Source: Escherichia coli (lineage in GTDB: Bacteria > Pseudomonadota > Gammaproteobacteria > Enterobacterales > Enterobacteriaceae). From it: a stretch of DNA of 64,000 nt. The stretch lies in the NCBI RefSeq assembly GCF_002854065.1, contig NZ_CP024151.1. One strand, written 5' to 3'. Shown here in pieces: positions 8,175 to 61,972 of this stretch (the first letter of the stretch is position 1; each line of letters opens with the position of its first letter). The notes beneath the pieces are model-generated. The model was given only the letters and a program-made list of their open reading frames with translations. It was not told where the DNA came from and did no database searches. Both the position numbers and the translations under genes were made by a program.

Positions 8175-9032
8175 TCAGGGGGAAGCTGTGGCCAGCCGGC
8201 TGTAATTACGGTTACGTGACAGAATCATGCGCTCTTTCACACGACGCTCCACTTCGCGTTTTACCGCCTCACGATTGGCAGTGAAGCGCCCTTCCGAGAT
8301 TTCACGCGTCAGCTGCCGTTTCACCAGGGTGACGATATCCTGACGTTCCCTGTTCGCATCACGACGCGCACGGGCACGCTTTATTCCACGGGACTTAAGC
8401 TCTGTCTGGTAACTGCGGAAACGCTCACGCACAAAACGCCAGGCTTTCGCTATCAGTTCATCCATACCCAGGGTATCCAGTCCCTGCTTTTTGCGCTGTC
8501 TGTTTTCCCATTCAACACGACTGCGGCGCGCAGCAACTACTGCATCCTCAGACACATCAAGGGCGGCAAATAGCGCCGGTGTGAACGTGATATCGGTCGG
8601 AATGTAGCACCCGATAAGCGGATCATATTCCGTCTGGTAGGTAATCAGTCCCAGCTCTGCAAGGAACGTCAAGGCTCGGGTGGCCCGGGTGATGGAGAGT
8701 TTTCCGGCAGCAGACTCCGTCGCCAGTCCGCACTCAATGGCCAGCGTAGTGATGGAGCACTGGACGCGGTTGGCCAGCGGGTCATAGTGAAAACACAGCC
8801 CCTGCAGCAGCGCATCAATAGCCCGGCGACGCAGTACCGGTGGCATGCGCCGACGCAGTCCCTTCGAACGGGCATGTGCCACATGAATGGCGAAATCAAA
8901 ACGGGAGGTGAAGCCCACCGCCTTTTCCATCAGTTTTTCGCAGAACTTCAGCGTTCCGGCACCTTCACGGGGTGTGAACACCGGATTCGGGTTTTTAACC
9001 TGTGAATAGTATTTTTGAAGGAGATCAGCCAT
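8175..9032 (-). CDS. repA1: Replication initiator RepA1 (IncFII)
   Basis: From internal ATG: [56 protein letters not shown]..., near-identical to R100/R1 RepA1. Confidence 0.9.
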
Positions 9033-9108
9033 GTCCCCCTCCAACACTATTCCCCCTCCTACGGGCGGCAACTAGCTCGTCTGGGCCGACACGTAAAGTT
9101 TCGAACAT
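9025..9108 (-). CDS. tap: repA1 leader peptide (tap/repA6-like), translationally coupled
   Basis: 27-codon [30 protein letters not shown] whose stop overlaps the repA1 start codon, the arrangement known for IncFII tap. Confidence 0.45.
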
Positions 9109-9805
9109 ATCTGGTCTGAACCAGATGGTTCCTCCATCAAAAGCGATGAGATGAAGATCATTATCAAGAGTTTTGAGGGCTCTCCAAACACGAGTGTATG
9201 AACCTCCACTACAAACTGAAAGCTCTTTAACAGATAAGTTAACTTTGTTCGTATCAGGGATGTAGTGTGCGCACATTACTTGTACGAGGGAAACATAAAA
9301 ACTAACCATCGACGCGCTGATTTTATTTTTACGTTTGCCATGCGCTATTGCAAGAAAACCTCTGATGAAGATCAGATGCTTGAAGGAGTCAAAATGAGCC
9401 CTTTTCTGGAGAAGGCAGCAAAACGGGTGAGGATACTTGCTGGAATCAATGTGAAGATCTGATTCAATCCCACCCGCTATTACTGAATGTGTTTCATGAT
9501 TAGCCACACCATCCTGCACTTACAATGCACAGAAGGAGTGAGCACAGAAAGAAGTCTTGAACTTTTCCGGGCATATAACTATACTCCCCGCATAGCTGAA
9601 TTGTTGGCTATGCGGTTTTATGGGGCCCCGGTAATCTTTCTAGTCGCCAAACTTGAAGAAGATTATCGGGGTTTTCGCTTTTCTGGCTCCTGTAAATCCA
9701 CATCAGAACCAGTTCCCTGCCACCTTACGGCGTGGCCAGCCACAAAATTCCTTAAACGATCAGCAATCTACCACTCACTCCTGAGATAAGCAAGAATGTG
9801 AATAT

Positions 9806-10063
9806 TTACGAAGTCGCTCTGCGTTTCAACTCTGATTCAATCAGTTTTTCAAGCATCTGCGCCTGAGTAATACCTTCCTCATCCGCAAGTTCACTCAGCC
9901 TGTCTTTTAACCGGGCCTGAATAACCGCATGAAAAGCCTTATGAGTGTTGCTTCTGCGAGCCAGAGAAGCTCTTTGCCTCTCTCTGGCCGGAACAGGGTT
10001 ACCTTTCCGGTATGTACGCTTGGTGCCTGATGAGGAAGTCACTGCATTTTCTGTCTGCGACAT
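9806..10063 (-). CDS. copB: Copy-number control repressor CopB (RepA2)
   Basis: [11 protein letters not shown]...[17 protein letters not shown] resembles R100 RepA2/CopB. Confidence 0.85.
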
Positions 10064-10178
10064 CTCGCCTCCTCAATTCTCAAACAGGGATCGTTTCGCA
10101 GAGAATACTACAGTTTTTTGAAATCAGCGACTTGAAAGTTGTGACGATGATCTGTGTTGGCGCACAAATCATGTCTGA

Positions 10179-10529
10179 TTACGACCGTTTAATGTGATTT
10201 TGATAATGAAATGACTGAAAAGCTGGAAATGCCTTAGCCAGGGTGCCGGCCCCGGGCGGGACCGGCTGTTTCTGGTATATAGGATGTCTGCCCCTGAAAT
10301 ACCTCACACTTCCGGAAAGCGGGGACTTCCGTGCTTCGTAGGCCAGAGTTACCTGCACCACTGTATTTCCTCTGTGAATATTCAGCTCACATAACCGTTC
10401 CCTGAATATCAGTGAAAAACACAACACCATGGCGCACACGGCGAGCAACCCGATAAGGGCATATTTCGTCATAAACTTTGACCTCTCTGCAAAGAAGAGG
10501 CTACAATCAGTAGTGTTAAGGTACTTCAT
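10179..10529 (-). CDS. srnB: SrnB/PndA (Hok-family) toxin locus: mok-like leader in frame with toxin; ORF lacks the expected stop
   Basis: MKYLNTTDCSLFFAERSKF-MTKYALIGLLAVCAMVLCFSLIFRERLCELNIHRGNTVVQVTLAYEARK matches SrnB; reading frame continues 48 codons past ...EARK. Confidence 0.7.
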   Translation of the reverse strand: MKYLNTTDCSLFFAERSKFMTKYALIGLLAVCAMVLCFSLIFRERLCELNIHRGNTVVQVTLAYEARKSPLSGSVRYFRGRHPIYQKQPVPPGAGTLAKAFPAFQSFHYQNHIKRS

Positions 10530-11478
10530 GCAGACCTCACGAGTTAATGGATTAACGAGTGGGGTCTTCGCATTTCTGGTACCTGCGTCTTGCCTGAACC
10601 AGAAAGGCTCAGACACCCGCCGCGATAATACCACATTCCCTGTTGCTGGCTATTACCCCCATTTGCCTGTTTTTGTTACAAAAACGCCGGGAGCGGGGGA
10701 AAACTTACTTTTTCCCGTTTCCGGGGGGGACAACTGAGCATTGCGAACGCGTCAGCTACGATGTTCCGGTGATTGCTGATCAGCCCCTGTTGTATTCATA
10801 AACTAATTAACATTCATTCCGTCTGGTGCATAAATCTGCCCGTGAACATCTGCAGACAATACCGACCATAAAAAAATAAATAATCCCAGTAGAATATATT
10901 TCCTCATATTATTATCCATAACAAATAAATGGCACCTGTACACCTGTATTTCAGGCAATCCTGAATATTGCAGCGCACATTGAATAAGACGTTATTTCGT
11001 GACATTAATCACAAAATATAAAATCGCGACTTAATACGGAAAAAACTCTGTGCTACTCAGAACTGACTGGTCATACTGCCCGACCGGATATTAAAAAAGC
11101 AAATCTCATAAACTCCTTTCAGCCTTCTGACTCCTGGAGTAATGAAGGCTGCTTTTTCGTTACACCCTTCCCCGGCAGCGCCGGTAGCAGTGTTCAGCCC
11201 TTTTTCGGGCAAACTGCTGCCAGTCTGTCCGGGGCGCAACACAGGCAGCCCGTCGCCATCCTTCTGCCGCTTCCATCCAGCGTCCACTGACCTCCAGAAT
11301 AACGGCCCGGCTTCCGGCACGCTGCCAGCGCCAGACCTGACCGTTCCGTGAACTGTTTCTGAATCCATTCATCTTTATCACTCCTCTTTAACCCGTCAGT
11401 ATTATGGTGTTAAATAATCTACTGAATTGGCTTCCTTTCGGGTACGGAAGTTTATTTCCTTTTAAGCCTTATTTCCCT

Positions 11479-12886: not shown

Positions 12887-15800
12887 TCAGTCTCCGCCCA
12901 GGGTTTTCTCTTTCTGCAGGGCACGAACCATATCCCGCTCCATCTGCTGCAGTCGCTCCTGCAGCAGATTTTCCCGGGCAACATCCCGGACCGCTTCCCG
13001 CACCCGTTGTGATTCACGCAGCACACTCTCCGGCAGCGCGGCTTCCCGTTCAGATATGGCAGACCGGTCACGCTCCTGCCCGGCAATCTCCCTGACAGCC
13101 TGCTCTGTTTTGCCATCCGGCAGGTCAGGTTTGTTCTCTGCCATTTTACGGACAATTTCATCCGCACGGCGTTCCGTTTCACGGCGGATGGCCTCTTCAG
13201 CTTGCCGCTGTGCCAGTACCTCTGCCGTGACCGGTTCGCCATTTCCGGCTCCCGGCTGAACGCTGTTGTCCGGGATATCCCCCCACACGCGACCACCGGT
13301 GATGGTACCGGGATTCCACGGACGACCTTCACCGGCGATTCTTACCACCACACCGCTGTCAGGATTATCACGGGCAATCCGGACACCATCCTGCATATTA
13401 TCAGCCAGCAGGCTCTCTCCGTTACGGCTGCCCTGCAGGGCCACGAACTGCGCATCCCCGCTGCCTTTCACCCGGCCTTCACCACTGAAGCCCCGCAGCC
13501 CGTTTCCGTCATCCGTGGTCAGCGGATTCAGCCAGATACCGGCGGACTTGCCGTTACGGTCAAAAGCCGGCAGTGCCACATACGGCTGCGGATATTTGCG
13601 CCCGGGTGCAATAAACCGTGCAGGATTGTCTCCCCCGGCAAGTCCCGCCTGACGGAGAACGGCACGGCCGGCCGCCACGTCCCGCAGCTCCCGCGCCGTA
13701 CTGAACAGCCGCTCTGCATTCATGACCTCCCGGTCCGATTTCGGCTCAAGCACATCGTGGGCAGTTCCTTTCTGTACGGCATTGTTAATGGCATCCGTCC
13801 AGCCCTGACGGTTATCGGTATACACCTGCACATGCTGCTTCATACGCGACAGGGCCACGTAGGCTGACTCAAAGCCGGCCATCTGTTTCCGGCTGCCTTC
13901 CGTACCTTCAAGCGCGATGGCAAAGGTTTCACTTGCCCCCTGCGCACCGTGGGCGGTGATGGCATAGGCCAGGTCAATATGTTGCTCTGCCCGCTCCTGA
14001 CCGGGGCGAATCACCCGGGTCTGCTGTCCGTCCGACAGCGTGACACTGTCACCGGAAACCGCTGTCACCGTCCAGACGCTGTTGGCCACATAACCGCGCT
14101 CCCGGTCACTCTTCGTGAAGCGCATCCGGTCACCGGTTCCCACCCGGATGGTGTCCGGGGTGTACAGTGTGACGCCTTCAGCCACCGCCTCCCGGGGCGA
14201 AATCAGCCGCGTGTTACCTTCAGCATCCTGCAGGGTTATCAGCCCGTCATCCCTGCTGATACCGGCAATCCGGTGATACACATTATCCACCAGGGCAAGT
14301 GCGTCCCGATGTGTCTCCCAGGTGGAGAGACGACGCAGCTCCCCGTCGCGTATATTCGCTGTGTTCAGGACAGGCACCATGACCTGCTCTTTTCCCAGCT
14401 CACCGGCCTTTTCCCGTGCATCATGAATCATGCTGTTCAGCACGCGCCGGTCCTCATTCAGGTGCGTGACAATCAGCGTCTGCTCCCGTGCTTCCGGTGT
14501 TCTGCCGGTATAGTCGCGGACAATGGCTTCATACAGTGTCATGGGGACATCCGGGAAAGCCTCGCCTTTCAGCATCGCCTTCTGCTGCGCTTCTGCCAGT
14601 TTCGCTTCCTGGCTGTGACTGAACTCCATCACGGAGTGCTCCGGTGCCCATGCGCCCTCCAGACGTGGCACCTGAGACGGTTTCACACTCTCAAGCCCGG
14701 ATAGTGCCCTTTCCACATCCCGGTTAATCAGGTTGTATACCGCCTCCCGCAGTTCCGGCGTCTGACGCACAATCTCCTTCATGATGGCCACATCGGCAGC
14801 ACTGCGCGTCTGCTGGAGACGGAAAGGCTGACCGGGCGCGATGGCCTGCAGCTGGTCCGTGTCACCACTGGCCACGGCACGACCGCCACCGGCCGCAATC
14901 AGGGCGTATGCCCGTGCCATGTCGGTATTGCCCACCATTGAGCTCTCATCGAGCAGGAACAGCGTGTTGCTGAAATCCGGCGTTTCTCCGCTGCGCTGCT
15001 GCAGCTGCGTGTCATGCAGAAAAGACGCCAATGTCTGCGCATCCACGCCGGCGCTGCGCATCTCCCCGACCGCACGGTGTGTGGGACCCAGCCCAACGAC
15101 ACGGGGACGCTCACTCTCCGGCAGCATGTTCACGGCTGACATCACCGCCCGGAACTGTGTGGTCTTACCCACACCGGCATAGCCCTGCACCACCGTGAAG
15201 CGGTCGGACGTTTCCAGTATCATGCGGGTGGCGGCGCGCTGTCCTGATGTCAGTTTCTCCATGAGTTCGCCAGGTACTCTCTCCATCAGCGGCGTGACCG
15301 CCTCCTTACCTTCGAGAATATGGCGAAGAATGCTCTTTTCTGCCTCATACGACGCACGGGAAACCAGCAGGCCTGTGCCATAGTCTTTTGCCACATCCAC
15401 ATACAGTAAATCACCCCGTTTTATCTGCGCATCGATTTCCCCTCCCAGTTCAGTAAAACTGGTTCCTTCTGCAGCAAACGACTTCGCCTCTGTCAGCAGG
15501 TCCACCATGCTGAAGGCCAGGTTTTTACTTTCCAGCACAGGAAGGGCCAGATGAATGGCCTGCTGTGCCGGCGTGTGAAGCCCGGCTTTCTGCAGACTGA
15601 TAGCGGTTTCCAGCAATGTCTCACCGGCACGCGCCTTTATCTGCTCAGAAACCACCGTAAAGGAGGGATGGCGGGCAAGTTTTTCCGCAGTACGGGTTTC
15701 ATCCAGTGAGGAATACAGCCGGACATCACGACCGCTGCGGGCCAGACCGTTCAGGGTGGCGTTGTCCATTGCCATCTGTGTGACGGAGGCAAAAACCTTC

Positions 15801-21825: not shown

Positions 21826-24647
21826 AATGGCCCCTTCAATCGTTCTTTCTTATCATCCACCATCTGTTTTAACGCATCTTCAGACGGTGTTGGCATTAAT
21901 TTCTGTCGTTTATTTTCTTCATTATATCTGTTGTTTTGTTGAATTTCTTCCTGTTTGTGATTATTTTTTAACTCTGAATATTGTCTGTCTACAATATTTT
22001 CTTCGCCATGAATACTATTCTGAGTATCTCCGATATTCCCTTTATATTCTGTGACCATATTATCAACCTGATGTTTTACATCATTACGGATATTACTGTC
22101 CTGCGTTCTTTGATCAATAATGGCCTGATGCCCCTGATGGTCAGCAATAATATCCTGGCTGCCACCACCCGAAGGTACGCTCTCCATTCCTTTACCAATA
22201 TCCCCACGGGATTCACGCCAGGCATTATCAACACCAGGCTGCACCTGTTCCTGAACAAAAGACCATGCCATCGCCCGACGGCGTTCTGCAATCTCCGGTG
22301 AACTGGTGTTTGTCAGAATAGCTTCGGCATCCTGCGGTGCGTGTTTCATCACATACTGTGCAAACTGTTGCGACAAATCTTCGCTCATCTGCCCACTCAT
22401 GCTTTCAGTACGGGATGCCATTTCAGCATATTCATGGCTGCGGGTCATATTCGTCGTGTACTGGTCGTAACTCTGTTTCGCTGAGTTCAGGGCTGCAGAC
22501 AACTGGTCCACGCGGGAATCGGCATTATTGTCAGTATGGCTGCCGGATTCACTGACTTTGCGACTGGTAAAGTAATCGCTGGCCTCTTTAAAGTCCTTAC
22601 TGGCTTTAGCATCGATATCATGGCGAGCATCATGGGTAGCCCTGCTGCCACTACTTGCTGAATGTGAGTCATCATCCGTTGCATCCAGGCTCCCCTTAAA
22701 TCCACCTCTGATGCCTACCCCACCACCAACACCAAGAATTTTAGGTTTAACCCCCCATTCAGCATGAGCATCAGCATACATTCCACCAGATAGCCTGGTA
22801 CTTGTTGATGCCAGTTCCTGAGTCGCCTGCTCATTACTGATATTATGCGCCTTCGCATAGCTTTCCACTGCACTGCGCATACGGCTGGCCATCATGGAGT
22901 CCTGAGCACTCATCGTGCTGTCAGCACCACCGGTGACAGAATCACTGCTCCCCCGGTTAGAACCAAACTGACTGAGCGTGTTCCAGGCACTGGCAATACT
23001 GCTGCTGAACCCATGCAGGGCACTTTCTGCTCTGTTCGATGCTTCCCGGGCCATTTCCTGTTGTGCCGCCGCAATCTGACGCGTTGCATTGATGCCGACC
23101 GGTAACCGGGACATCGCTCCGCTTGCATCCATCACCATATTACCGTCACGGGTCTGTGTGGCGGTTGCGCCACTGCCGGTCTGGTACATCATCTGACCAA
23201 ACGACGTGGTGCTGTTGGTGCTCCAGCTGAAGCCGTTAACATTCTCCGTCTGCATGTTGCCGTAGGAGTAATTACCGTCAACCACACTGCCTGCTGCACT
23301 GGCGGTCGGGCTGATAGCAGAGGAAGCGAAATGGCTGTACACACTGGAAAATCCTGCCCCGAGCCCCCTGACCATCATCCAGGATAATGGCGGGATCATC
23401 ATGGAAAGATACCCGGCAGTGGAAGCCAGATCGGAGTATTTCAGCTGTATCTGTGAAATTTCCGAGAGCACCACCGGTGCACCATTCTGCTTTGCATAAA
23501 ATGTCATGGCGCTGTTCAGAATGGCGTACAACATTGGCCATGACTGCAACCACATCAGGGCAAACACATAGCCTTTCAGGACGGACAGCGTCAGTTTGTT
23601 GAAGACAGCCGCCAGTACCAGGAGCGGGAAAATACCGATGGCGATCCCCGTCAGGATGGTCTGCGTCATGGGCAGTGTCCGCATCGCCACATGACCGATG
23701 GAGACATGTGCCAGACGTTGCTTCTCCATCGATGATGTGGTGGCCAGATTCACCAGGCTGGCCGAATCACCATTACGTGCGGCATAACTGGTGATCCCCT
23801 CCTTCAGCGCATTGATGGTGACATTCTGGCGGATGATCTGGCTGGCTGATTTACTTGAGCCATAGAAGTAACTGTAACTGTCGCCAATCAGCGTACTGAA
23901 CAACAGGTTCGGATCAGGGCGTCCACCAAATAGCTGCTGGGCATAATAATGCCATGTTTTTCCGCCACTCTGTGTGTCCAGATTCAGCTTGTCTTTCAGC
24001 GAAACCGACGCGTCCTTACAGGTCACGAAATTATTATTGCTGTCATAAACGCCCCGCAGCGGACTGGGGCGGGAAAAAATCAGCGTGTAAGGATCAGCGG
24101 AGGCCATCAGTTCCTCCAGCGTGTATTTGTGGTTCAGGTAAATATCCCCCATCACGCAGTTCTGCACATAATCCTGGAAAAGATTGGCGATTTCCGGATT
24201 ACGGGACAAAAAGTCGGTGCTTTTTGATACCAGTTCTGCGCCAAACAGCATCCCCGTTTTGCTGTAGGTGACACTGTCCGGTTGCGTGAAGATCATCTCG
24301 TAACTGGCCACCATTGCATGCCCGATACGGGTCGTCAGTGAAAGTGGCATCGCCAGTCCGACCGGCACATTATCCACCCGGTGAACTTTGACCAGGTCAC
24401 TGTTATCAATAATCTGCACCGATGTGCGGACATTAACCAGCAGGCTGATAAGCACAAACACGGCCACCCAGCCCAGCAAATCCATCACGTTGTGCCGCTG
24501 TACCCACATTACGGCCACCGCGAGAACAGACAATGTGAGCGCAATTTTTTCAATGGAATCCCACGTCCGGGTCCCCATAAAGGCGGCAATGGCATTCAGG
24601 TTATTCCGCAACCACTCACCACCGGCAATCACATAAACTTCATTCAC
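21822..24647 (-). CDS. traG: TraG mating pair stabilization / pilus assembly
   Basis: 941 aa MNEVYVIAGGEWLRNNLNAIAAFMGTRTW...; GTG start overlapping traH stop. Confidence 0.95.
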   Translation of the reverse strand: MNEVYVIAGGEWLRNNLNAIAAFMGTRTWDSIEKIALTLSVLAVAVMWVQRHNVMDLLGWVAVFVLISLLVNVRTSVQIIDNSDLVKVHRVDNVPVGLAMPLSLTTRIGHAMVASYEMIFTQPDSVTYSKTGMLFGAELVSKSTDFLSRNPEIANLFQDYVQNCVMGDIYLNHKYTLEELMASADPYTLIFSRPSPLRGVYDSNNNFVTCKDASVSLKDKLNLDTQSGGKTWHYYAQQLFGGRPDPNLLFSTLIGDSYSYFYGSSKSASQIIRQNVTINALKEGITSYAARNGDSASLVNLATTSSMEKQRLAHVSIGHVAMRTLPMTQTILTGIAIGIFPLLVLAAVFNKLTLSVLKGYVFALMWLQSWPMLYAILNSAMTFYAKQNGAPVVLSEISQIQLKYSDLASTAGYLSMMIPPLSWMMVRGLGAGFSSVYSHFASSAISPTASAAGSVVDGNYSYGNMQTENVNGFSWSTNSTTSFGQMMYQTGSGATATQTRDGNMVMDASGAMSRLPVGINATRQIAAAQQEMAREASNRAESALHGFSSSIASAWNTLSQFGSNRGSSDSVTGGADSTMSAQDSMMASRMRSAVESYAKAHNISNEQATQELASTSTRLSGGMYADAHAEWGVKPKILGVGGGVGIRGGFKGSLDATDDDSHSASSGSRATHDARHDIDAKASKDFKEASDYFTSRKVSESGSHTDNNADSRVDQLSAALNSAKQSYDQYTTNMTRSHEYAEMASRTESMSGQMSEDLSQQFAQYVMKHAPQDAEAILTNTSSPEIAERRRAMAWSFVQEQVQPGVDNAWRESRGDIGKGMESVPSGGGSQDIIADHQGHQAIIDQRTQDSNIRNDVKHQVDNMVTEYKGNIGDTQNSIHGEENIVDRQYSELKNNHKQEEIQQNNRYNEENKRQKLMPTPSEDALKQMVDDKKERLKGPL

Positions 24648-37628: not shown

Positions 37629-39045
37629 CGTTGCCCCCTCCCTGGCTGCCGGACATAAACTGCTGCGGATTCAGGTTGCCCAGCTGCTTCAGCATCTGGT
37701 CAGTATTAAAGCCGTTAAGATGACTTTCAGCCGATGGCGGAACAGAAACCGGACTTTCCGGATTGTCTTCTTCCGCTCTGCTCTGCGTGCGTTCCAGCGC
37801 CATCTCTTCCACGGTTTTCAGCTGGAAGCCGTCCTGGAACACCACGGTCACTTCGTTGCCCGCACCAATCGGTATCACCGGGTGATACTGTTCGGCACGT
37901 TTGATGTAGTAGTCACTGAGCGTCTGTGCGGCTTTCGATGCGCCGCCACCGATACCCATTTTAAGGACATCGCCGGCCCCGTAAGCAGCGGTGGCACCCA
38001 GCCCGACAGCCGGCTGGGAGGCGCGCTCCATTCCCTGACCGATACCGTCAACAAATCCCGCGCCCCATGCCCAGCCGAGGATTTTGCCGTTACGCATCAC
38101 CACTTCGCCCTTGATACCGTTTTTACCCCGGAAGCTGACATGCCCCTTAATCGGCATATCAATGGTTTTGCCGTCCTTCAGGCAGCTGATATTGCGGGTG
38201 CGTACAATGGCACGCTCACTGGAGACATCCCCCCAGGCTTCCAGCCCCACAAAACATCCCGTTGCGTCATACGTTTTGCTGTTCGGCATTTCCACCAGGC
38301 CGGTGATACGCAGCTGCATCGGCACCGTGGATTCATTACCGGTGACCGACGCATTGGCATCCGCCCCTTCAATCAGCATGGCTTTCGCAAAACTTCCTGA
38401 CGGAATGTACGGCAGTGATGGTCCCTGTTTTCCCTCATTACGGGTAAACACCTTACGCTGTATCCGGTTAGGCACCGGCACAGACTGGTACGTCACCTGT
38501 GGTGGTGGCGTGACACCATTCCCGGGATAAAACGCCGTCGGCGGTGGAACAGCAACGCTGCCCTGCGGCGGGAAGGATACGGGGGTGTTTCCTGGCTGTG
38601 GTTCGCCTTCCGGGCCGGGCGGTGAGGCAGGCATCTGCGGTACAGGCTCACCGGTCGCCGTGACGGGATTAGCACCCAGGGCTTTCACCTGCTCTGCCAG
38701 GGCGGCATTATCCTGTCCCAGCTTTTCAATACGACGCTGGTCATCACCGCGCTGTTTGTTCAGGACATCCAGCTCGCGACGGATTTCCTCATACTGCTTC
38801 TGCATCTGCGCTGCCGTCACCTGCATCTCTGTGGTGGCATGCTGACGCACCTTGTCATCAAAGGTCGTATCCACCACACCGGTCATATCCGGCACGGGTT
38901 CCTGTTCAGCCACGGCCTCACCGTTACCGGACATGTCCACATCAGACAGATACAGTGCACCACCAATCGCGGAGGCTGCACCGACAACCACAATCCCCAG
39001 CCACAGGTACTGCTTGCGTTTCACAATGGTATTGATACTGGCCAT
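37618..39045 (-). CDS. traB: TraB (VirB10-like)
   Basis: 475 aa [35 protein letters not shown]..., proline-rich linker. Confidence 0.95.
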   Translation of the reverse strand: MASINTIVKRKQYLWLGIVVVGAASAIGGALYLSDVDMSGNGEAVAEQEPVPDMTGVVDTTFDDKVRQHATTEMQVTAAQMQKQYEEIRRELDVLNKQRGDDQRRIEKLGQDNAALAEQVKALGANPVTATGEPVPQMPASPPGPEGEPQPGNTPVSFPPQGSVAVPPPTAFYPGNGVTPPPQVTYQSVPVPNRIQRKVFTRNEGKQGPSLPYIPSGSFAKAMLIEGADANASVTGNESTVPMQLRITGLVEMPNSKTYDATGCFVGLEAWGDVSSERAIVRTRNISCLKDGKTIDMPIKGHVSFRGKNGIKGEVVMRNGKILGWAWGAGFVDGIGQGMERASQPAVGLGATAAYGAGDVLKMGIGGGASKAAQTLSDYYIKRAEQYHPVIPIGAGNEVTVVFQDGFQLKTVEEMALERTQSRAEEDNPESPVSVPPSAESHLNGFNTDQMLKQLGNLNPQQFMSGSQGGGNDGK

Positions 39046-41394: not shown

Positions 41395-42081
41395 TTACTT
41401 AACGCTATAAAATTCACGAATTATATTTAATAGCAAATCTATTTTCCCTTTATAGATACATGACACTCTGAATAAATCAAAGTGTTCAAAAAATTCTTTT
41501 ATTTTCCGTTTAACTGGTTTAATTCGATCCTCAGATGCTCTGTCTGTAATACCCAATTCTCTGGCAATTGTTGCATGACCAACACCCAGCATATAAAAAG
41601 AGAAAACAAGCAATGTCCCGGGGGAAAGATCATTCCATATCGTTAATTTATCAGAAGTATTTGTATTACTTCCACTCTGACTTAACGCAAAAAATGGATA
41701 ATCAGGAAACGGATTAATTTGCCATAAAACAACAGATTCGTCATTATAAAAAGAAACATTCTCCATCCTTATCTGATAGATTTCGCCATGAAAATTAAAA
41801 CGACGACAAAATGCAGAGCCATGTCCAAGAGCCTGGCATTCCAATTCAAGTGATGAAAGAAAAATTTCAACCTGCAGACGTATATAACTCTCTCCGGATA
41901 AGGGTTTATCTTCTCTGGAAAAGAGTTCAATAAAAGCCCCATTGGCATAAAGGATTTTCCGGTTTTTGTTACGGACACAAACCGGAACGGGAGAATTTCT
42001 GTAGATATTCTGAACGTTAAGGATGTACTTATTTACAGATTGACTGTTAAGTGGCCTTTCTCTACGATCCAGCGCACACAT
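41395..42081 (-). CDS. traJ: TraJ transcriptional activator of the tra operon
   Basis: Position between traY and traM; start taken at internal ATG ([13 protein letters not shown]...) preceded by GGAGG; 228 aa. Confidence 0.8.
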
Positions 42082-42152
42082 AGGAACCTCCGTTAAGGAT
42101 TCTATGGACAGTCGATGCAGGGAGTTCAGACCTCCCTGCATCGGCGATTTTC
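42072..42152 (+). ncRNA. finP: FinP antisense RNA (approximate bounds)
   Basis: Antisense to traJ leader/RBS; hairpin GATGCAGGGAG-N6-CTCCCTGCATC followed by GCGATTTT on the plus strand. Confidence 0.5.
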
Positions 42153-42271
42153 AGTTTCAATTTTTAACGTGGCATTAACCACGTAATTAATATACTAATT
42201 ATCTGACGTATTGTCATCTTTTTGAATCATAAAAATTCTTATATTTGAACCAACTCAAACTTCATTTTCAT

Positions 42272-46024: not shown

Positions 46025-46183
46025 CTACTTACCGGATTCGTAAGCCATGAAAGCCGCCACCTCCCTGTGTCCGTCTCTGTAACGAATCTCGCACAGCGAT
46101 TTTCGTGTCAGATAAGTGAATATCAACAGTGTGAGACACACGATCAACACACACCAGACAAGGGAACTTCGTGGTAGTTTCAT
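46025..46183 (-). CDS. hok: Hok-family toxin (Hok/FlmA-like), intact
   Basis: [52 protein letters not shown]; 3' UTR GC-rich fold-back region follows. Confidence 0.85.
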
Positions 46184-46241
46184 GGCCTTCTTCTCCTTGC
46201 GCAAAGCGCGGTAAGAGGCTATCCTGATGTGGACTAGACAT
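46029..46241 (-). CDS. mok: Mok/FlmC-like overlapping reading frame
   Basis: 70-codon ORF overlapping hok in the +1 frame. Confidence 0.6.
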
Positions 46242-46462
46242 AGGGATGCCTCGTGGTGGTTAATGAAAATTAACTTACTACGGGGCTATCTTCTTTCTGT
46301 CACACAACACGGCAACAAACCACCTTCACGTCATGAGGCAGAAAGCCTCAAGCGCCGGGCACATCATAGCCCATATACCTGCACGCTGACCACACTCACT
46401 TTCCCTGAAAATAATCCGCTCATTCAGACCGTTCACGGGAAATCCGTGTGATTGTTGCCGCA

Positions 46463-47182
46463 TCACGCCGCCTCCCGGAGTTTGTTCGGCACCATCCATC
46501 GCTCCATCTCACGGACGGCATGACCGGCCTCCCTTGCCGCCATACCAGCCTCTGCGATGACCTGCCAGAATGGCATATCCTGCCACTGCCAGCGTTCCAT
46601 TCCGGCCAGTGACGGAAAACGCTCGCCCCACTGCCAGAACAGGGTTTCCAGGTCATGCTCTGCCACCCGGTCACTCCAGCGTGCATGCCAGCTTCCGACT
46701 GTTTCCGGTGAATGAAATGCCAGTTCGATTTCAGCCTGAGCGACCAGCGCCTGGTACGCACGGGCTTTCTGCTCTGTCTCCCTCGCCTGCTGGCGGCTGT
46801 ACTTCTGCATGACCAGCGCGGATTTATGGCGACTGCGTTCCCTGACACGAAACCGCACCGACGGGAACAAGCGCTCTGCTGCATCACCGGGAAGGGGAAG
46901 GAGGCAGACCTCGCCCTGTGTTTCAATCAGCACATCGATGGCATACAGCCACTGAAGACGGTTGCCGTGCAGTTCTTCTGCGGTCAGGGACGGCATGAAA
47001 AATCGCAGGTCAGACAGCGATATCCTGCGGCTTCCGTTCAGACAGCGGAAAAACGCCCCCGCATACGGATATTCAGCCAGCGTGTTACCCTGATGGCGGC
47101 GTTTTTCGGTCTCCGCCACCGCCCGCCATGCGGCCTGTTGCTCTGTGCTGAGAGGAACCAGTGCCTGTGAACGTGCGCTCAT
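46463..47182 (-). CDS. psiA: PsiA (plasmid SOS inhibition operon protein A)
   Basis: 239 aa [50 protein letters not shown]... Confidence 0.9.
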
Positions 47183-53354: not shown

Positions 53355-53585
53355 TCAGTTAAAAGCGCGTTTCAGTTCGAGTGTGCGGAGCACCTGCCCG
53401 AAGGCCGTGTTTTTCATGGCGGGGATGTGTACACCACGCCCCCGGTGAAAACTCCGGGCAATGTGTCGCCCGAAGGCTTTCAGCACGGGGTCAATTTCCG
53501 GCGCGGGGATGTCTTCGCGTCTGAAACGGGGATGACGGCGGGGCTTTACAGCCGCTGCGGAAGGTGAAACAATACTTACTGTCAT
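53355..53585 (-). CDS. Hypothetical small basic protein (76 aa)
   Basis: ATG with AAGGAG RBS, downstream of repeat copy 3. Confidence 0.45.
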   Translation of the reverse strand: MTVSIVSPSAAAVKPRRHPRFRREDIPAPEIDPVLKAFGRHIARSFHRGRGVHIPAMKNTAFGQVLRTLELKRAFN

Positions 53586-53825
53586 AAATGAAACTCCTTA
53601 TGACAAATTGGTTAACAATGCCGTCAAAATTGGTTGTGCAATTCTTACGGCGTGGATTAAGCAGGTCCCTGACCTGCTTTTTTCATATCTGCGTCTGACG
53701 TTCTACGGTGTTTTCCTCCTTCTGTTCCTGCGTTCTCATTACCTGCCAGCCGGATGACTGACAGAACAAATAAATGCATATTGCCGGAGCCTGAAATAAA
53801 TCCTGATTTTTAAAGAACATCACCC

Positions 53826-59626: not shown

Positions 59627-59980
59627 GGGAATTCTCCTCTCACATGCGGCCTCTATCAGGCCGTGCCGCACCTGTAACCGGGCGACCGCATACGAATGCA
59701 GGTGCGGCCCCGAAGCCGCAGCGCGTGGAGGAGGAACGACGAAACGTGACCGGGTGAGGAGGCCGGCGACAGCGACACACTTGCATCGGATGCAGCCCGG
59801 TTAACGTGCCGGCACGGCCTGGGTAACCAGGTATTTTATTCACAGAACCGTGCGCAAAATGCTGTGGATAAGCTGGACACAGCAGTCCACAGCAGGCATA
59901 CAGCCACACCCTCAGAGAATTGAGCGTTTTTTAGTCACAATAATGACATTTGACTGTGTGTGGATTCAGTTATTAGAATG

Positions 59981-59996
59981 CTGTATATACATACAG
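59981..59996 (+). promoter_or_regulatory. LexA box (SOS operator) upstream of impC
   Basis: CTGTATATACATACAG fits CTGT-N8-ACAG, ~25 bp upstream of the impC ATG. Confidence 0.7.
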
Positions 59997-60019
59997 CAAT
60001 AGAAAAGGGAGATGAGAAC

Positions 60020-60268
60020 ATGATCCGCATTGAAATTCTTTTCGACCGCCAGAGCACAAAAAACCTCAAATCAGGCACACTTCAGGCGCTACAGAATGAA
60101 ATCGAACAACGTCTGAAACCACACTCCCCGGAAATCTGGCTGCGTATAGACCAGGGCAGCGCCCCGTCTGTATCTGTCACAGGAGCCCGCAACGACAAGG
60201 ATAAAGAACGTATCATGTCTCTGCTGGAAGAAATCTGGCAGGACGACAGCTGGCTGCCTGCAGCATGA
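60020..60268 (+). CDS. impC: ImpC (DinI-like SOS modulator)
   Basis: MIRIEILFDRQSTKNLKSGTLQALQNEIEQRLKPHSPEIWLRIDQGSAP...EIWQDDSWLPAA, DinI-family pattern. Confidence 0.85.
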   Translation: MIRIEILFDRQSTKNLKSGTLQALQNEIEQRLKPHSPEIWLRIDQGSAPSVSVTGARNDKDKERIMSLLEEIWQDDSWLPAA

Positions 60269-60702
60269 GTACCGTTTATCACCGTCCGGCTGACCCTTCA
60301 GGCGATGACAGTTACGTGCGACCGTTGTTTGCCGATCGTTGCCAGGCCGGTTTTCCTTCGCCTGCCACTGATTATGCTGAGCAGGAACTGGATCTGAACA
60401 GCTATTGCATCAGCAGACCTGCAGCCACCTTCTTTCTGCGCGCCAGCGGTGAATCGATGAACCAGGCTGGCGTGCAGAATGGTGATCTGCTGGTAGTGGA
60501 CAGGGCCGAGAAACCACAACACGGGGACATCGTTATCGCTGAGATCGACGGTGAGTTCACCGTCAAACGACTGCTGTTGCGCCCACGCCCGGCACTGGAG
60601 CCGGTTTCAGACAGCCCGGAATTTCGCACACTGTATCCGGAAAACATCTGTATTTTTGGTGTTGTCACTCACGTGATACACAGGACGCGGGAGTTACGCT
60701 GA
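60265..60702 (+). CDS. impA: ImpA (UmuD/MucA-like, S24 peptidase fold)
   Basis: 145 aa LexA/UmuD-like; start overlaps impC stop (ATGA). Confidence 0.9.
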   Translation: MSTVYHRPADPSGDDSYVRPLFADRCQAGFPSPATDYAEQELDLNSYCISRPAATFFLRASGESMNQAGVQNGDLLVVDRAEKPQHGDIVIAEIDGEFTVKRLLLRPRPALEPVSDSPEFRTLYPENICIFGVVTHVIHRTRELR

Positions 60703-61972
60703 TGTTTGCACTGGCTGATATCAACAGTTTCTACGCCTCATGTGAAAAAGTTTTCCGCCCGGACCTTCGCAACGAACCGGTCATCGTACTCAGCAATAAC
60801 GATGGCTGTGTGATCGCGCGCAGCCGGAGGCAAAAGCCCTTGGCATCAGAATGGGGCAGCCCTGGTTTCAGGTGAGACAGATGCGCCTGGAGAAGAAAAT
60901 ACATGTATTTTCCAGCAATTATGCGCTGTACCACAGCATGAGCCAACGGGTCATGGCTGTTCTGGAGTCGCTTTCTCCCGCAGTTGAGCCCTACTCAATT
61001 GATGAAATGTTCATTGATTTGCGGGGGATAAATCATTGCATCTCTCCGGAGGTTTTTGGTCATCAGCTCAGGGAACAGGTAAAGAGCTGGACAGGACTCA
61101 CCATGGGGGTGGGCATTGCGCCTACAAAAACGCTGGCTAAAAGTGCACAGTGGGCAACAAAGCAATGGCCACAGTTTTCCGGTGTGGTCGCGCTGGAGGC
61201 AGAAAACCGTAATCGGATCTTGAAGCTACTGGGGCTGCAGCCAGTTGGTGAGGTCTGGGGAGTAGGACGCAGACTGACGGAAAAGCTGAATGCGCTGGGT
61301 ATTAACACAGCACTGCAGCTGGCGCAGGCTAACACGGCATTCATCCGGAAAAACTTCAGCGTCATTCTTGAGCGTACGGTACGCGAACTCAACGGCGAGT
61401 CCTGCATATCCCTGGAAGAAGCACCACCGGCAAAACAGCAGATTGTCTGTAGTCGCAGTTTTGGTGAACGAATCACAGACAAAGATGCCATGCACCAGGC
61501 TGTTGTTCAGTATGCAGAGCGGGCCGCAGAGAAACTACGTGGGGAGCGTCAGTATTGCCGGCAGGTGACGACATTTGTACGGACATCCCCCTTTGCAGTA
61601 AAAGAACCCTGTTACAGCAATGCCGCTGTGGAAAAGCTTCCATTACCCACACAGGACAGCCGGGACATTATTGCCGCAGCATGCAGAGCGTTAAACCATG
61701 TCTGGCGTGAAGGGTACCGCTATATGAAGGCAGGAGTCATGCTGGCTGATTTCACACCATCGGGTATAGCGCAGCCGGGATTATTTGATGAGATCCAGCC
61801 CCGTAAAAACAGCGAAAAGTTAATGAAAACACTCGATGAACTGAACCAGTCTGGAAAAGGGAAAGTGTGGTTTGCGGGGCGAGGAACCGCCCCTGAATGG
61901 CAAATGAAACGGGAAATGCTCTCGCCTTCGTATACAACACAATGGACTGAGATCCCCATTGCTTCATTCTGA
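60702..61972 (+). pseudogene. impB: ImpB (UmuC/MucB-like Y-family polymerase), apparent -1 nt frameshift near 60822-60826
   Basis: N-terminal 40 codons (MFALADINSFYASCEKVFRPDL...VIARS) in frame 0 then stop at ~60878; remainder (EAKALGIRMGQPWFQ... 373 aa) continues in another frame. Confidence 0.8.

Follow-up and report, generated by a model that had tools for sequence, protein, structure and literature searches.

A one-base deletion splits the polymerase gene impB of an impCAB operon on an F-like Escherichia coli plasmid

The impCAB operon is known from the IncI1 plasmid TP110 and from the Shigella virulence plasmid (Lodwick et al. 1990; Runyen-Janecky et al. 1999, both cited after PMC12211044), and in plasmid pTF2 the proteins ImpC, ImpA, and ImpB are LexA-controlled, with levels that rise upon SOS induction (PMC12211044). 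Here we describe an operon of this type carried in the window, i.e., the whole 64,000-nucleotide stretch of DNA that was analysed. It shares with the impCAB operons of TP110 and Shigella the order of a DinI-like, a UmuD-like, and a UmuC-like gene, the overlap of the impA stop with the impB start (TGATG), and LexA boxes placed over the promoter, whose cores are those of pTF2. Other records and RefSeq likewise name the third gene impB or its product "protein ImpB". Unlike in these operons, however, impB of the window is frameshifted at codon 42, and no single chain can provide the whole polymerase subunit. Compared to the chromosomal umuDC operon of E. coli (DNA polymerase V), the window operon is alike in its matches to the UmuC and UmuD models and in its SOS control, but differs in being plasmid-borne, in its position in a leading region, in its additional DinI-like first gene, and in that its UmuC-like gene is a pseudogene.

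Positions 39001–64000 of the window are 100% identical to NZ_CP116170.1, the 90,243-bp plasmid pDETEC81 (window coordinates equal those of the accession plus 8,579). The setting is that of an F-like plasmid, with an IncFII RepA, a CopA RNA, and a tra operon with FinP, along with a leading region containing ssb, psiB-psiA, hok/sok, an anti-restriction gene, and methylases. These leading-region genes are followed, in order, by DUF1281, impC, impA, impB, and a parM/stability pair. The impCAB operon thus sits in the leading region of an F-like conjugative plasmid. On NZ_CP116170.1, RefSeq lists impB (PIC86_RS23505) as a "Y-family DNA polymerase" pseudogene, "frameshifted". The host of that plasmid is E. 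coli DETEC-P1056 (GCF_027944915.1), from an ICU rectal swab in Guangzhou, and a literature search for the strain, the plasmid, or the accession returned no publication. Three other genes of the same record, psiA, ompP, and istB, are also flagged "frameshifted". For psiA, which is so called by PGAP, an ORF of 239 aa is open, and 23 plasmids carry exactly this allele; we considered psiA as a gauge of assembly quality and rejected it, since an open ORF with an allele common to that many plasmids is silent against the base calls.

Upstream of impC, a single promoter-like site was found on the + strand, overlapped or followed by two putative LexA boxes (Table 1). The 20-mer of the distal box is the reverse complement of AACTGAATCCACACACAGTC, a LexA site of pTF2 impCAB with an HI of 13.49, while the core of the proximal box is the core of the pTF2 impCAB site TACTGTATATACATACAGCA, with an HI of 1.60 (PMC12211044). 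The first gene, impC, gave a weak match to the NCBIfam DinI model (38.1 bits, short of the cut-off of 111 for an equivalog), and the same gene gives a Pfam DinI match in loci L021–L028. The match of impA to the NCBIfam UmuD model NF007621 was above threshold (143.4 bits, cut-off 110), and on inspection its motifs QAG|FPSP, ASGESM, and TVKRL stand where UmuD has its cleavage site and Ser/Lys dyad. The locus thus has both an adjoining gene for a UmuD-like S24 autoprotease and a LexA box at the promoter, as in an SOS-regulated umuDC-like operon. As read from the sequence, promoter, impC, and impA are intact around a broken impB.

Table 1 Features of the impCAB operon in the window.
Feature	Position	Strand	Remarks
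Sigma-70-type imp promoter	59950..59979	+	TTGACT, 18-nt spacer, TAGAAT; 10/12 consensus matches
Putative LexA box, distal, weaker	59954..59969	+	CTGTGTGTGGATTCAG; overlaps the -35 hexamer and spacer
Putative LexA box, proximal, strong	59981..59996	+	CTGTATATACATACAG; directly downstream of the -10 hexamer
impC, DinI-like, 82 aa	60020..60268	+	Open ORF; RefSeq WP_001775014.1, "DinI-like family protein"
impA, UmuD-like autoproteolytic subunit, 145 aa	60265..60702	+	Open ORF; RefSeq WP_000109071.1
impB pseudogene (UmuC-like Y-family polymerase)	60702..61972	+	1,271 nt, against 1,272 in the intact gene
Translated impB remnant	60702..60875	+	41 native residues (including Asp6 and Tyr11) and 16 out-of-frame residues, then TGA
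1-bp deletion site in impB	60824..60825	+	CC, against CCC in intact genes; AGC CCG GAG becomes AGC CGG AGG
Out-of-frame impB remainder, residues 43–423	60826..61972	+	Without stops

The lesion in impB

The impB gene is divided between two reading frames. In the first, translation from the ATG at 60702 yields 57 codons, MFALADINSFYASCEKVFRPDLRNEPVIVLSNNDGCVIARS followed by RRQKPLASEWGSPGFR, and ends at the TGA at 60873–60875. The second frame, which starts at 60704 (PEAKALGIRMGQPWFQ...), is free of stops until the TGA at 61970–61972. The longest ORF inside this remainder, from the ATG at 60851 (Met50), encodes 373 aa that match positions 51–421 of the UmuC model, and so lacks the first 50 residues. 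A preliminary description of the window had proposed this two-frame layout, which was confirmed, with a first frame of about 60 codons, which is corrected here to 57. The frames and the alignment also bore out its coordinates for impB, the peptide strings it gave for both termini, and the size of about 423 aa that it expected of a repaired protein.

The same description had placed a single missing base near 60822–60826, and an alignment with the intact impB of plasmid pECO-816c (L001) located it: one C is absent at 60824–60825, and this C is the sole difference across 92 columns (GCAG-CCGGAGG, GCAGCCGGAGG, in the window; GCAGCCCGGAGG in pECO-816c). The frame shifts after Ser41, and the gene is split at codon 42. 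Ten carrier loci were compared, and in each of them the deletion falls at impB nt 123. Once the C is restored, impB encodes 423 aa identical to the ImpB of pECO-816c, and the repaired protein scores 790.9 bits against NCBIfam NF002955 (UmuC subfamily; cut-off 431), with residues 1–421 aligned to profile positions 1–421, along with Pfam matches to IMS (4e-40), IMS_C (2e-24), DUF4113 (8e-20), and IMS_HHH. A whole UmuC/ImpB enzyme requires a single uninterrupted reading frame, which impB of the window lacks.

We consider it very probable that the frameshifted impB reflects a true, inherited loss of one C, that the polymerase was lost with it while ImpC and ImpA were kept, and that it is part of a general decay of impB. 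The C would have been lost from the CCC run across codons 41–42, presumably through replication slippage. In public annotation the gene is already flagged, and impB of the window is an ordinary, lineage-marking pseudogene; its significance beyond annotation is small, a possible wider point being the excess of impB decay among plasmids that small samples suggest.

Decay of impB in other plasmids

The impB pseudogenes of pAA-like plasmids (O104:H4-type strains), of pO104_H21, and of p2_STEC346 show the same gene hit either by an internal deletion or by small indels at short homopolymer runs. One C is lost from a C5 run in the pAA-like plasmid CP023530, one A from an A5 run in pO104_H21, and one C at nt 944–946 in both CP024291 and CP014110, while p2_STEC346 has a 115-bp deletion and the STEC1152 plasmid a premature stop at codon 151 (G452A) together with a 1-bp insertion. 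Across these plasmids, impA and usually impC are still annotated. These lesions are independent and differ from lineage to lineage, and the loss of a C at nt 123–125 is confined to the pDETEC81-type haplotype and to recombinants of it. Overall, impB is often found decayed in F-like and I-complex plasmids, and the lesion of the window is one case of this trend. A literature search on impB pseudogenes returned nothing on point.

To compare the three genes, we used two evenly spaced samples, 120 of the ~3,800 PLSDB records that match the operon, and took a missing PLSDB annotation as a proxy for a lesion, which proved a true lesion in 8 of the 8 cases checked. Among the 69 near-full-length operons, the annotated gene was missing for the polymerase in 19, for the UmuD-like protein in 2, and for the DinI-like protein in none. 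If losses simply followed gene length, ~13.6 would be expected in impB, 4.7 in impA, and 2.7 in impC (chi-square p ~0.04, relatedness ignored). In 32 of the 120 sampled records, impC, impA, and most of impB were gone and only a 458-bp 3' remnant of impB was left. These counts, from small and phylogenetically non-independent samples, suggest that impB decays more often than impA or impC.

Why impB should be lost can be approached through its likely cost and benefit. The host chromosome usually supplies umuDC, which may make a plasmid copy dispensable, and expression of the imp genes is likely costly. Induced impCAB causes a severe growth defect, while conjugation of an impB mutant is unchanged (PMC10286972), which fits a loss that is neutral or mildly favoured. 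For pTF2, deletion of impA, impB, or impC left both conjugation and the SOS level unchanged (PMC12211044).

A stronger, adaptive version of this account holds that plasmids repeatedly discard a costly mutator polymerase and keep the LexA-controlled ImpC and ImpA for a role of their own, e.g., damping RecA and the SOS response after conjugative entry. The excess of operons without a polymerase gene is in its favour, as are the toxicity of the induced operon, the intact impC and impA in nearly all impB-lesion plasmids examined, and the position of the operon, which has psiB, ssb, and the anti-restriction gene as neighbours within the leading region. However, the samples behind the excess are small and related by descent, and a missing annotation, despite its agreement with the lesions that were checked, is a mere proxy. 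Young pseudogenes naturally leave their neighbours intact for some time, pAA-like plasmids also lack impC and the start of impA, and in about a quarter of the plasmids sampled, all of impC and impA is missing along with most of impB. The deletions in pTF2 also speak against a separate role for ImpC and ImpA, at least in conjugation or in setting the SOS level. On balance, we regard adaptive loss as an unlikely account of the lesion in the window, and the broader claim that F-like and I-complex plasmids repeatedly and selectively lose impB but retain impC and impA as slightly less likely again. If it were true, the DinI-like and UmuD-like proteins would have, in the leading region, a task that does not depend on the polymerase, such as tuning RecA and the SOS response in a new host; a plasmid-borne mutator polymerase would be a net cost; and the C deletion, seen on two or three imp haplotypes, would have been spread by selection and not by drift. 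Ordinary decay of impB remains our preferred reading.

Predicted loss of the polymerase

Y-family polymerases work by an established three-carboxylate mechanism. When aligned to solved DinB and Dpo4 chains, the ImpB motif ADINSFYAS falls on VDMDAFFAS, the site of the first catalytic Asp and of the steric-gate aromatic residue, and SIDEMFID falls on SIDEAYLD, the site of the Asp-Glu pair. These two catalytic motifs lie on opposite sides of impB codon 42. The 57-aa product holds the first motif only, and a product re-started at Met50, which would be without the N-terminal 49 residues, would hold the second only. The three carboxylates Asp6, Asp101, and Glu102 (UmuC numbering) are hence not found on one chain in the window, and no product would join Asp6 and the steric-gate Tyr11 with Asp101 and Glu102. 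Because the mechanism needs all three carboxylates and the motifs are split, neither fragment is expected to polymerise. From these residue positions and from what is known of the Y family, we infer that the translesion polymerase activity of ImpA'-ImpB is lost. ImpC and ImpA would still be made from the intact LexA-controlled promoter. This favours one of the two alternatives offered in the preliminary description, a polymerase lost with impC and impA kept: both genes are open, the promoter and LexA boxes are present, and impB is split. This plasmid, together with the lineage in which its allele is found, should not be scored as having a working plasmid-borne error-prone polymerase, a point to bear in mind where imp or umuC homologues on resistance plasmids are counted as "mutagenesis" or "evolvability" genes.

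The activity could be retained in part if ribosomes changed frame. Leaky or programmed -1 frameshifting within 60800–60872, for example by a Lys-tRNA slipping from AAG to AAA at CAA AAG, would yield some full-length ImpB and leave the gene partly functional. Both frames are free of stops across this overlap, the downstream impB frame is still stop-free, and an A-AAG motif (CAA AAG, 60831–60836) lies 6 nt after the deletion, A-AAG being a shift-prone Lys codon context in E. coli, as known from dnaX. In principle, low-level -1 slippage at this point might produce a near-native ImpB that is altered at three residues. However, the motif lacks the rest of a shift site: CAA AAG is not part of a full X XXY YYZ heptamer, and the Shine-Dalgarno-like GGAGG at 60826–60830 is immediately adjacent, too near to act, the stimulatory spacing for -1 shifts being 10–14 nt upstream. 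The downstream RNA also folds no better than shuffled sequences (z = 0.49).

The two-frame layout is, furthermore, not conserved. In a search for exact matches to a 61-base query centred on the deletion site, the allele was found in 9 of 2,301 PLSDB plasmids and in 7 of 1,667 replicons of complete E. coli genomes (the two sets overlap), and the others that were examined have impB in a single frame. Lastly, p5735-2 carries the same C deletion and has lost impB nt ~162–953, about 790 bp and most of the gene, as would be expected of a gene already dead (this plasmid was compared by BLAST, its mafft alignment being scrambled by the large internal deletion). Read-through at a level that matters is accordingly judged very improbable, and a programmed frameshift of the dnaX or IS3-transposase type was rejected, given an unconserved layout, no heptamer, and no downstream structure.

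Distribution of the deletion allele

The 2,292 PLSDB plasmids without a match to the deletion allele fell in an identity band of 95–99%. Every non-carrier that was listed or aligned has CCC, i.e., the extra C (98.4% identity to the query), and a single frame; intact orthologues with the same two-frame arrangement, which the preliminary description had named as one observation that would speak against a deletion, were absent. The carriers amount to about 10–11 finished plasmid records from at least 7 strains. They comprise, from Guangdong and Hong Kong, pDETEC81 (Guangzhou), p886Rt_hybrid (Shenzhen), and the plasmids of two wastewater isolates from Hong Kong (one of them CP055053); from elsewhere in China, p626A1-123K (Zhejiang), pWL297-2 (Wenling), and p1916D18-2 (swine, Henan); and, in addition, two plasmids of strain PM4-5 and the bovine p5735-2 (no country given). 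In every RefSeq copy of a carrier, impB is flagged "frameshifted".

The allele follows the sequence around it. Flanking genes are common to the carriers, down to identical protein accessions, and over 4.8 kb carriers differ from the window by 0–4 substitutions, against 9–32 in non-carriers. When the search was made with 8 kb of flanking sequence, the best six matches (99.9–100%) were all carriers, and the best intact match was CP056975, from UK pigs, at 99.7%. By our own arithmetic, six carriers would top ~2,300 records by chance with a probability of ~4e-16 if the deletion were independent of ancestry.

The allele is also on record in draft data. The exact 57-aa frameshift peptide was found on 304 contigs in 421 index blocks, across NCBI drafts, ENA, and Logan assemblies, including SPAdes-style NODE contigs, a metagenome scaffold, and Logan run assemblies. 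All 8 of the 8 peptide-bearing loci that were fetched carry the deletion, 5 of them with 1–6 mismatches in 6.2 kb.

A homopolymer miscall in a plasmid that truly has CCC, the other alternative of the preliminary description, is excluded for practical purposes and is to us the least probable reading of all: although the lesion does fall in a short homopolymer and psiA, ompP, and istB carry the same flag in the record, a base-calling error cannot produce an allele that co-segregates with its flanking haplotype, recurs in so many independent records and assemblies, stays confined to the nearest relatives of the window instead of scattering among the ~2,300 plasmids with identical local sequence, and has decayed further in a descendant such as p5735-2, and the shared psiA allele is no sign of poor base calling. 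The C deletion is a real, heritable allele and a marker of one plasmid haplotype, for which the records that give a country are mainly Chinese and the sources are human, swine, and wastewater.

The allele is found on more than one background, however. The two co-resident plasmids of PM4-5 are ~96% identical over 7.4 kb, yet identical across a 1,990-bp tract that takes in the imp promoter, impC, impA, and impB up to nt 943, with the deletion among them. Between this tract and the window haplotype, 11 sites differ. At least two imp haplotypes, that of the window and that of PM4-5, thus carry the deletion. A single event followed by inheritance would then need short recombination tracts, unless the site is a recurrent one, and the allele would have reached at least one other imp haplotype by either recombination or recurrence. 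In a few Logan contigs, this frameshift peptide is encoded by a third allele, which is more divergent and has additional frameshifts, and the deletion probably lies on this third imp haplotype as well.

Other carriers of the impB single-C deletion and further decay

The single-C deletion that disrupts impB in the window was also found in E. coli PM4-5, where pPM4-5-ndm-5 and pPM4-5-103k, two plasmids that reside together (loci L005 and L006), both carry it. These two plasmids share ~96% identity across 7.4 kb, and within them a 1,990-bp tract (locus coordinates 8863-10852, corresponding to window ~59655-61644) is identical; it contains the imp promoter, both impC and impA, and impB up to nt 943, with the same C missing. 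Eleven sites separate this tract from the window haplotype. The shared tract looks like the product of either gene conversion between the co-resident plasmids or read cross-talk during assembly polishing.

The frameshift peptide (ARSRRQK...) was further detected on a divergent impB allele in two Logan contigs (P0008 and P0010), and the same C deletion is therefore probably present on a third haplotype, through either recurrence or recombination. On this divergent allele, the early stop is gone and the native frame resumes near codon 70, with an additional frameshift near codon 197. The pseudogene is undergoing more decay in plasmid p5735-2 (NZ_CP154889.1; L009, locus coordinates 9910-10380), where, on top of the same C deletion, impB nt ~162-953 are missing and a 5' piece of 161 nt is fused to a 3' piece of 319 nt.

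Independent impB lesions and a widespread 3' remnant

Outside of the C-deletion carriers, impB was inactivated independently in other plasmid lineages, as seen in the impB regions of six plasmid loci (L013, L014, and L017-L020; lesions listed in the table). The impA annotation was retained in all six, and impC was annotated in all except the pAA-like plasmid. To this can be added two PLSDB spread samples (60 records each), queried with window 60020-61972 and with positions 700-2690 of L018: in both samples, the sole imp match for 16 of the 60 records (~1/4) was the same 458-bp piece from the 3' half of impB (query 1431-1899). The fragment, carried for the most part by large IncF plasmids, is a fixed and widespread remnant.

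Coordinates of window features and of impB lesions in other lineages
Feature	Position	Strand
psiA	window 46420-47182	-
psiA 239-aa ORF	window 46463-47182	
LexA-box-like CTG-N10-CAG pair	window 59954-59996	
Rfam match	window 9592-9680	
Rfam match	window 10460-10618	
Rfam match	window 11080-11263	
Rfam match	window 15232-15308	
Rfam match	window 23843-23928	
Rfam match	window 42075-42184	
Rfam match	window 46181-46357	
Rfam match	window 53580-53682	
impB, 115-bp deletion		
impB, premature stop (G452A) plus 1-bp insertion	codon 151 (stop)	
impB, C5 run short of one C	nt 883-887	
impB, A5 run short of one A	nt 422-426	
impB, one C missing (common to two plasmids)	nt 944-946	

psiA, LexA-like motifs, and small RNAs

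RefSeq describes the window psiA as "frameshifted", but it contains an open 239-aa ORF. The exact 763-bp allele occurs at 100% identity in 23 plasmids of PLSDB, and several of these records label the product as intact PsiA. The gene is probably a C-terminal length variant rather than an error.

Across the whole window, CTG-N10-CAG occurred 49 times versus 17.6 expected from dinucleotide-preserving shuffles (shuffle maximum 29), and only the pair in the table was LexA-box-like. This excess probably reflects codon usage (CTG and CAG), which such shuffles fail to preserve. Finally, eight stretches matched Rfam above the gathering score, and the families recovered (CopA, two Sok RNAs, AS-pc02, AS-traI, AS-traG, FinP with the traJ 5' UTR, and AS-pc01) are the small RNAs typically present on F-like plasmids.
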